Source of the DNA: a virus
Lineage: Duplodnaviria; Heunggongvirae; Uroviricota; Caudoviricetes
Reading direction: 5' to 3' (one strand)
IMG/VR virus record: IMGVR_UViG_2681813321_000021
Length of the DNA stretch: 21,512 nucleotides
Position numbers and translations under genes: made by a program. Positions 12,661-13,493 of the stretch are shown here, piece by piece (within the stretch, counting starts at the first letter, position 1; each line of letters opens with the position of its first letter). Under the pieces are notes generated by a model. The model had not been told where the DNA came from and did not search any database. It was given only the letters and a program-made list of their open reading frames with translations.

Positions 12661-12909
12661 ATGGTCATGAATAATAAGCTAAAGGTAATTGAGTTAAATA
12701 GTCTTGATCTGTTTCGTAAAGAATTACTAACTACTATAAAGCCAGAGAAAGTAGAGAAATTACTTAGATGGTATCTTCAATCATATGGCGGTGTTAATTT
12801 CAAGTTCGGTTATGACAGACCAATTTTTAGAGCGCGAAAGTGCCCAAATGAATGCGGATATAATAACATCAGTGAGATATATCCCCTCCACCAGAAAAAT
12901 GTAAAATAG
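12661..12909 (+). CDS. Hypothetical 82-aa ORF; probably the N-terminal part of a frameshifted RES-domain-like gene
   Basis: GGGATGG RBS. Ends at TAG 12907-12909. The downstream ORF is open in the -1 frame from 12876, so the two overlap. Confidence 0.45.
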   Translation: MVMNNKLKVIELNSLDLFRKELLTTIKPEKVEKLLRWYLQSYGGVNFKFGYDRPIFRARKCPNECGYNNISEIYPLHQKNVK

Positions 12910-12914
12910 GCCGA

Positions 12915-13493
12915 ATGAATGATGATGGACAAGCTATCTTCTATGGCGCTTATAGTATCGGAACAGCTTTAGCCGAAATTAATGCAAAAGAAGGGGATTA
13001 TGTTCACATAGCTCACTTTAAGATGCCGGAAAATTCAGAGTCTGGAATGCGATGTTTTGCTATCGGTGAGGTCTTTAATGTGTATCACGGTGTAAATACA
13101 ATTTCAATTGAAGTGTTTAATGAAATTCGCGACATCATTAGCAGAATTGGTAAGGACGACATCCGAGCTTTGCTATCATATTTGTATATGGATGCCCTTT
13201 CTGCTGAGTTGCTTAATAGTATCAATGCCCATGAGGTAAATTATATTTACTCAAGAATTTTTTGCCGTCTTCTTCTTGATAAATACCCTGATGTTGATGG
13301 CCTTATTTATCCTAGCGCTAAAATAAAAGGGGCCTCAAATATCGCTTTGCGCACAGAAACAGTTAAATCGAGAATGCATTTAGTTGCTAATCTTGTGTTT
13401 AAAGTAAATAAAATTTATCCATATGGAATAGTAGATTTCAGTATAGTAAAACAAGCCAAAGGACATACATCAGATGGGCGCATCGTTTGGTGA
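12915..13493 (+). CDS. RES-domain-like protein (putative ADP-ribosyltransferase/NADase-type toxin domain), probably disrupted
   Basis: The frame extends upstream to give ...KIGRMNDDGQAIFYGAYSIGTALAE..., resembling the RES G-R-x-N...Y.A.S...A..E block, and later ...DGLIYPSAKIKGASNIAL..., resembling the RES PS motif. The conserved Arg precedes the only ATG. Confidence 0.45.
   Translation: MNDDGQAIFYGAYSIGTALAEINAKEGDYVHIAHFKMPENSESGMRCFAIGEVFNVYHGVNTISIEVFNEIRDIISRIGKDDIRALLSYLYMDALSAELLNSINAHEVNYIYSRIFCRLLLDKYPDVDGLIYPSAKIKGASNIALRTETVKSRMHLVANLVFKVNKIYPYGIVDFSIVKQAKGHTSDGRIVW

Follow-up and report, generated by a model that had tools for sequence, protein, structure and literature searches.

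A rare frameshifted allele of an antitoxin-less RES gene on an IS4-like cassette in a P2-like prophage of Escherichia coli

RES toxins are known as halves of RES-Xre toxin-antitoxin (TA) pairs. Why, then, does a RES-like gene stand in a tailed-phage genome in two pieces and with no Xre gene beside it? The locus lies in IMG/VR virus record IMGVR_UViG_2681813321_000021 (Caudoviricetes), whose whole stretch of 21,512 nucleotides (nt) is called the window here and supplies all coordinates. A preliminary description had read positions 12661-13493 as a RES-domain-like toxin gene split into two open reading frames (ORFs) by a frameshift in an A5 run, and had left the choice between a decaying orphan toxin, a slippage-regulated gene and a new fused architecture. 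We consider it highly probable that the locus is a loss-of-function allele, with a C5 run shortened to C4, of a solitary RES gene carried on a transposase-less cassette with ends of the IS4 type (IS, insertion sequence) in a P88-like prophage. The parts of the broken gene are as follows.

12661-12909, plus strand: ORF1, 82 amino acids (aa), frame 1, with the stop codon TAG at 12907-12909
12667..12909, plus strand: 5' fragment of the RES gene, codons 1-74 in the original frame, then 7 out-of-frame codons and TAG
12876..13493, plus strand: 3' remainder of the RES gene, read in the -1 frame with respect to the 5' fragment
12883..12886, plus strand: C4 run, where one nt was deleted; the sequence is CCCCCTCCACCA in intact alleles and encodes a conserved PPPP
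12915-13493, plus strand: ORF2, 192 aa, frame 3, WP_024167816.1, carrying Y95, E106 and S219

It is evident from the comparison with intact copies that ORF1 and ORF2 are one 275-aa gene broken by a 1-nt deletion. The same 1.5-kb stretch is carried by 66 of the 5,426 complete E. coli genomes at 98.8-99.1% identity, with match lengths of 1537-1544 nt whose spread is explained by length variation of a poly-G tract described below, and all 66 copies are a single coding sequence, annotated as 'RES family NAD+ phosphorylase' (275 aa, WP_001060550.1). Alignment to strain Eco889 places TATCCCCTCC of the window against TATCCCCCTCC of the intact gene, that is, C5 against C4; this missing C and one substitution are the only differences within the gene, which is 99.8% identical to the intact one, far more than chance would allow. 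The A5 run at 12895-12899, to which the lesion had been assigned, is unchanged in the window. The frame shifts at about codon 75, inside the RES domain, between the invariant R57/R59 and R85 (residue numbering follows P0001). Frame 3 is open from 12876, past the TGA at 12873-12875, and a single base added anywhere within 12876-12906 merges the two ORFs, as the preliminary description had proposed. The longest ORF1 start, 12661, lies two codons 5' of 12667, and RefSeq homologues begin at the ATG equivalent to 12667.

The locus could also be taken for two genuine genes, an antitoxin-like or regulatory ORF1 and a toxin ORF2, in a split or newly evolving TA module. Its geometry is indeed that of a TA operon, with a small upstream ORF, a 5-nt gap and a RES ORF, and ORF2 has its own RefSeq accession. 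However, homologues down to 33% identity are all one ORF of about 275 aa, which speaks against separate genes. Moreover, the 5' fragment carries no helix-turn-helix (HTH) or DUF2384 signal; it includes both the helical hairpin of the N-terminus and, with the invariant R57/R59, the first RES strand, and ORF2 in turn lacks R85, the counterpart of the essential R47 of the RES toxin MbcT. We regard two separate genes as extremely improbable.

The window allele is real, inherited and rare, being found in less than 1% of copies. A 76-nt probe over the lesion gave a 77-nt match in all 60 listed of the 66 complete genomes and was 100% identical in none of the 66; the C4 allele is thus present in 0 of the 66 complete E. 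coli genomes having the locus. On the other hand, the identical C4 deletion is found in another NCBI assembly (GCA_001285125.1) and in independently assembled read sets (Logan and ENA contigs; L024 and 7 similar places), and we therefore judge it to be real rather than an assembly error. In addition, the 192-aa ORF2 product has three NCBI protein accessions, which come from different isolates. A sequencing or assembly artefact, in which the gene would be intact in the organism and the missing C a homopolymer error, might be suspected because the lesion falls within a homopolymer and the same contig holds a second frameshifted gene (yfcJ, with a 2-nt deletion) and an oddly long poly-G tract. 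Against these signs stand the recurrence in other assemblies, read sets and isolates and the length of the run, since C5 is short for a systematic Illumina error. We consider an artefact very unlikely.

The intact protein is encoded on at least 1000 contigs, to which a second allele adds 917; the split form is found on about 9-16, so that more than 99% of copies are in frame. We found at least four independent disruptions in a look-up that detects only those upstream of Met-86, and the other breaks yield the same 192-aa ORF2. In phage P88_4B11 (NC_049391.1), a different C was lost three bases further on (CCCCCT-CACCA), in a CC dinucleotide, and the gene is annotated as two genes. In two metagenome contigs an A is missing from CTTGATCTG, at gene position 41. 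One E. coli contig and a set of contigs with a 91.6%-identical allele have GAG changed to TAG at codon 70. The latter change is shared by an E. coli-type allele (99.8% identical) and an Enterobacter-type allele (91.6%), reflecting either independent recurrence or recombination. We do not claim recurrent counter-selection of a toxic gene from these alleles, as the look-up reaches only the part upstream of Met-86 and broken copies are less than 1%.

These breaks also bear on programmed recoding or phase variation, in which slippage of the ribosome, RNA polymerase or replication on the C or A run would switch the toxin on and off. Such a reversible switch would be an attractive way of taming a toxin without an antitoxin, and the 1-nt deletions of the window and P88_4B11 are independent, no more than 3 nt apart and in the same C-rich stretch. 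But the interval from the frame-3 stop at 12873 to the frame-1 stop at 12909 contains no X XXY YYZ heptamer, and the only one (12843) lies upstream of the frame-3 stops, where a ribosomal -1 frameshift would be unproductive. The homopolymer runs here are only 4-5 nt, too short to slip efficiently, whereas contingency genes are recognised by runs of about 7 nt or more with both phases common, and the intact form is on about 2000 or more contigs against the 9-16 of the split form. Moreover, the stop at codon 70, the deleted A in CTTGATCTG and the deletion in the CC of P88_4B11 are not reversible by slippage. Recoding or phase variation is thus very improbable, and slippage regulation, one of the three earlier suggestions, is abandoned in favour of a dead allele.

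Inactivity of the window allele is almost certain to judge from its sequence, because ORF2 starts just past the codon of R85 and lacks R57/R59 too. The codon for R85, the Arg of the G-R-M-N block, is CGA at 12912-12914, directly 5' of the only usable ATG of ORF2 at 12915, in agreement with the earlier remark that the product as written lacks a catalytic Arg. The idea of a decaying orphan toxin was therefore right for this allele.

What, then, is the intact protein? The repaired protein matches Pfam RES (PF08808) with E=4e-12 and 46.8 bits (cut-off 23.2), and ORF2 alone still matches with E=8e-10 and 39.3 bits, bearing out the assignment to the RES domain. An AlphaFold (AF2) model of good confidence (predicted local distance difference test, pLDDT, 87.5; predicted template modelling score, pTM, 0.85) has an ADP-ribosyltransferase-like fold, closest among known folds to the solved RES toxins MbcT, NatT and ParT. 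Its parts are the following.

Residues 12-41: N-terminal helical hairpin of two helices
Residues 45-61: first strands
Residues about 150-208: helical insertion, besides the RES core

R57, R59, R85, Y95, E106 and S219 are invariant in 44 full-length homologues, and the spacing of R57/R59, R85, Y95, E106 and S219 parallels that of R27, R47, Y58, E69 and S126 of MbcT. Alanine substitution of R27, R47 or Y58 in MbcT abolishes toxicity (PMC6436930). The 44 homologues (52-99% identity) share a length of about 275 aa and can be aligned over its whole extent; their sources are Enterobacter, Lelliottia, Leclercia, Citrobacter, Buttiauxella, Salmonella, Aeromonas, Alkalimonas, Rheinheimera, Neptunomonas and Moraxellaceae. 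In its intact form this is a small gammaproteobacterial family, with a length that is always about 275 aa.

The N-terminal part had been described as an unfamiliar extension of 82 aa. Positions 2-3 of the Pfam model align at residues 53-55 in distant members, so that the RES domain begins near residue 52 and the true extension is about 50 aa rather than a foreign addition of 82 aa. An exhaustive search with ORF1 among 1.84 billion representative proteins gave 16 matches, all of them RES proteins of 270-281 aa or fragments. This part is, as far as such searches reach, specific to the RES family of about 275 aa, and neither a modular sensor that is also attached to other effectors nor the suggested new fused architecture agrees with this result; no similarity to Xre antitoxins was found in it. 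The next-closest relatives in sequence are RES proteins with a PF18870 N-terminal domain (E about 1e-8 to 1e-4).

The RES subfamily is genuinely solitary, since no neighbour is common to the ten genomic contexts in which homologues occur and DNA homology between the loci is limited to the gene and about 120 nt upstream of it. The contexts include a site after ogr in an Enterobacter P2-like prophage, a place beside an integrase gene, a MobA/TraD/pilS island, places next to Hcp or an IS and one near umuDC, among others; their neighbouring genes share no similarity and none is Xre/DUF2384. The absence of an Xre/COG5642 partner, pointed out earlier for this locus, thus extends to all homologues. 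With regard to a hidden antitoxin, the ORFs of 30 aa or more inside or beside the cassette gave no HTH, Xre or DUF2384 match, the small ORFs there have no Pfam match and an Rfam scan of 11600-14400 detected sok only. The zinc-ribbon and VasI-like genes downstream were also considered as partners and rejected, as both occur in prophages without the RES cassette as well. A RES paralogue of 56-57% identity is found in a conjugative or mobilisable island (MobA, TraD, PilS, shufflon) of E. coli and Salmonella. An unannotated lipoprotein-like ORF of 176 aa always precedes it by 250 nt, a synteny that may reflect one element.

How did such a gene come into the prophage? The preliminary description had rightly seen a split orphan RES gene and had missed the mobile unit around it, an IS4-like cassette between target-site duplications in a P2-like prophage. 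Its features are listed below.

12314..12324: left copy of the 11-bp target-site duplication CCCTATCTCAC
12325-13822: cassette of 1,498 bp, with the RES gene and its own 5' region and terminator as sole cargo
12325..12439, plus strand: left terminal inverted repeat, with the terminus CAATGCCGTTCAGTTA(GTTA)AGGAATTGAGG
12541..12660, plus strand: presumed promoter and 5' untranslated region, without a partner ORF, kept in homologues that are 73-79% identical
13485..13500, plus strand: terminator-like hairpin, then a T-run, overlapping the stop codon
13654..13673, plus strand: poly-G tract (G7 A G12), some 160 nt 3' of the RES stop codon and separated from the right repeat by about 37 nt
13711..13822, minus strand: right terminal inverted repeat; over about 113 nt it shares about 91% identity with the left arm
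13823..13833: right copy of the 11-bp target-site duplication CCCTATCTCAC

Past transposition of the cassette is well supported. In strain MSI001, where the same prophage has an empty site, window positions 11640-12324 and 13823-15520 are contiguous with an 11-nt overlap, which makes the borders of the insertion exact. CCCTATCTCAC is present twice around the insert and once in this strain, a classical mark of transposition. Among the complete E. coli genomes, 125 have the empty site and 66 the filled one. The IS4 subgroup has ends of the form -AATR--------WTW----, a duplication of 10-13 bp and a size of 1400-1650 bp (PMC2266710 Table 1). Both arms of the cassette begin with CAATG....TTA, matching the signature at positions 2-5 and 14-16, and the 1,498 bp and the 11-bp duplication are both in the range of the subgroup. 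In Enterobacter, the cassette terminus CAATGCCGTTCAGTTAAGGA agrees with the K-12 IS4 end TAATGCCGATCAGTTAAGGA at 18 of the 20 terminal nt by manual count; the arms of the window are slightly poorer, the right one with 17/20 and the left one with a 4-nt insertion. The left repeat also holds an internal hairpin, GAGGTTCG-ATAGCC-CGAACCTC. No transposase gene is present in the cassette, in which the RES gene is the only ORF with any Pfam match. No flanking inverted repeats were found around more distant homologues.

A metagenome contig (OLNN01001643.1, 2966-3037) retains at the same site, between the same 11-bp duplications, a 72-nt palindromic remnant like a miniature inverted-repeat transposable element (MITE). 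It consists of the outer 36 nt or so of each arm, the deletion lying between the GAGGTTCG motifs of both arms, which indicates that the RES cargo can be deleted.

Alternatively, the inverted repeats might be a recombination product, such as an invertible or palindromic junction, with the gene acquired by homologous or illegitimate recombination at a module boundary. The insertion lies 2 nt from the end of a hok module conserved in more than 1000 prophages, an autonomous partner IS was not found and the Enterobacter copy, whose right arm is missing, has the left arm only. These points are outweighed in our judgement by the precise 11-bp direct duplication, single in empty sites, by termini that match the IS4 end and subgroup signature with a duplication length in the IS4 range, and by the same left terminus abutting, at the same nucleotide, unrelated DNA 26 nt after ogr in Enterobacter. 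Recombination is a distinctly unlikely origin of the cassette.

The RES gene has 36% G+C against 55% of the prophage. A sigma-70 scan gave no strong plus-strand match, and the promoter in 12541-12660 is inferred. The poly-G tract varies in length between strains and may be hypermutable: it has 20 nt in the window, 8 in Eco889 and 5 in phage P88_4B11, and viral contigs have 6-8.

The cassette-bearing element is a P2-like prophage, P88-like in type (Xuanwuvirus), with pdxB and flk of E. coli on its two sides. The order of genes is sheath, tube, tape measure, D, ogr, hok/sok, cassette, zinc-ribbon membrane protein and VasI-like protein; from about 15386 onwards the sequence is again core chromosome (pdxB-flk intergenic region), and everything to the left is prophage. 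The whole cassette is also present in the sequenced phage genome NC_049391.1 (Xuanwuvirus P88_4B11) in the same gene order, followed by the integrase gene, and it therefore belongs to the phage genome. Its place is just downstream of hok/sok in the cargo region between ogr and the attachment site, where related prophages have com and a methyltransferase gene, the zinc-ribbon/VasI-like pair or nothing.

As for function, the intact protein would consume NAD+ by phosphorolysis or hydrolysis, like MbcT, Res and NatT, or ADP-ribosylate a target, like ParT. Its restraint without an antitoxin gene would have to be in cis, either through low expression or through the N-terminal hairpin (residues 12-41) and the insertion at about 150-208. 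The gene may serve the prophage as a toxic effector in abortive infection, exclusion or addiction, and an IS4-type transposase acting in trans may have moved the cassette. It is doubtful that all of this holds together in its fullest form, namely a self-contained, single-gene, NAD+-depleting effector of abortive infection or exclusion that is auto-inhibited by the hairpin and insertion, spreads among P2-like phages as passenger of an IS4-type cassette and suffers inactivating mutations that reflect its cost to the host.

Several points weigh against such an account, some of them also against the IS4-type cassette itself. The NAD+ or ADP-ribosyl activity, toxicity and anti-phage effect of the family are predicted, and self-inhibition by the helical additions is pure conjecture. 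The intact family matched no PADLOC (PADLOC-DB v2, E up to 1), PHROG or NCBIfam model, and a known anti-phage defence system was rejected on this ground. No autonomous IS with these ends, and no other copy of the repeat, was detected in the 5,426 E. coli genomes, plasmids, phages, species representatives or viral and metagenome contigs, in scans of the collections that required an exact 20-24-mer of the repeat; two matches among the genome contigs (an archaeon and an acidobacterium) were dismissed as chance 20-mers. Moreover, the E. coli cassette is at a single site, which does not speak for ongoing mobility.

Comparison with known systems places the family near RES-Xre type II TA toxins, namely MbcT (Rv1989c), Res of P. 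putida, NatT of P. aeruginosa, ParT of Sphingobium and VPA0770. Unlike them, it has no Xre/COG5642 gene or conserved neighbour, and it is enlarged by about 50 N-terminal residues, which form the helical hairpin, and by an insertion, also helical, of about 60 residues. Its sequence similarity to the solved RES proteins is undetectable by profile search. RES proteins with HEPN_RES_NTD1 (PF18870), the next-closest in sequence, are likewise longer than minimal RES toxins, but the N-terminal region of our family does not match PF18870. With regard to the cassette, mobile insertion cassettes and MITE-like derivatives of the IS4 family (IS231-derived; PMC2266710) are alike in their IS-type terminal repeats, duplication in the IS4 range, passenger gene and lack of a transposase. 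The present cassette differs from them in its IS4-subgroup ends, unusually long repeats (about 113 nt), its enterobacterial P2-like phage host and its toxin-gene cargo; no autonomous partner was found for it, and its known insertion sites number one or two. The accessory loci of P2-like phages (old, tin and fun/Z hotspots; Rousset 2022, PMC9122126) resemble it as AT-rich, variably present genes with their own expression signals. However, we did not find the location between hok and the attachment site discussed in two papers on the P2 hotspots, and the family gave no PADLOC match.

The frameshift itself is ordinary and gives a rare, dead allele of a gene that is already annotated; of modest interest are the RES subfamily without a partner and the cassette. 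New here is a cassette of 1,498 bp, with ends of the IS4 subgroup and a target duplication of 11 bp, whose sole cargo is a RES gene; it is a tidy case, in a packaged phage genome, of transposon-mediated cargo exchange in the accessory region. About 2000 or more contigs, with prophages and genomic islands among the settings, carry the conserved antitoxin-less subfamily, and how a lone and potent NAD+-consuming fold is tolerated is a directly testable question. In addition, annotation calls for caution, as the 192-aa WP_024167816.1 is named as an enzyme though it lacks the catalytic arginines.

Some further observations were made around the cassette. A hok/sok locus (type I TA) directly follows ogr: its Hok-family ORF occupies 12111-12251, and Rfam detects sok at 11965-12124 with 43.6 bits, short of the gathering score (59). 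This hok/sok module is common to more than 1000 complete E. coli genomes, and the homology mostly ends 2 nt past the target site of the cassette, which is thus almost exactly on a phage module boundary. Downstream, 14021-15251 (AT-rich, 36% G+C) is a phage cargo pair. One gene encodes a zinc-ribbon protein of 110 aa that has a DrpB-like membrane tail (phrog_6586); the product of the other, 297 aa in length, is VasI/TagO-like and carries a signal peptide (PF11319, phrog_1848). The pair is found in prophages both with and without the RES cassette, and a protein like a type VI secretion accessory component is unexpected in a P2-like phage. Just past the VasI-like gene and close to the junction of prophage and chromosome, 15270-15311 form a terminator-like hairpin, in which a perfect inverted repeat of 19 nt encloses a 4-nt loop.

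At the left end of the window, 1-2814 and 3127-5940 form a direct duplication of 2,814 bp with 99.86% identity (4 mismatches) and a 312-nt spacer. Within it are a gpU-like gene, four small ORFs and the 3' end of the tape-measure gene, present as a truncated fragment (2151-2864) in the first copy. The duplication could be a real tandem copy or an assembly artefact at the contig end. On the chromosomal side, yfcJ for a major facilitator superfamily transporter (16501-17677) is 1177 nt long, whereas other strains have 1179 nt; the loss of two nt (GC) at about 17135 divides it into ORFs 16501-17148 and 17096-17677, making it the second frameshifted gene in the contig. Finally, at about 17938, just downstream of fabB, the window has a 19-nt insertion relative to Eco889, CGACTACTCCGACCTACTG, which looks like a short tandem duplication.

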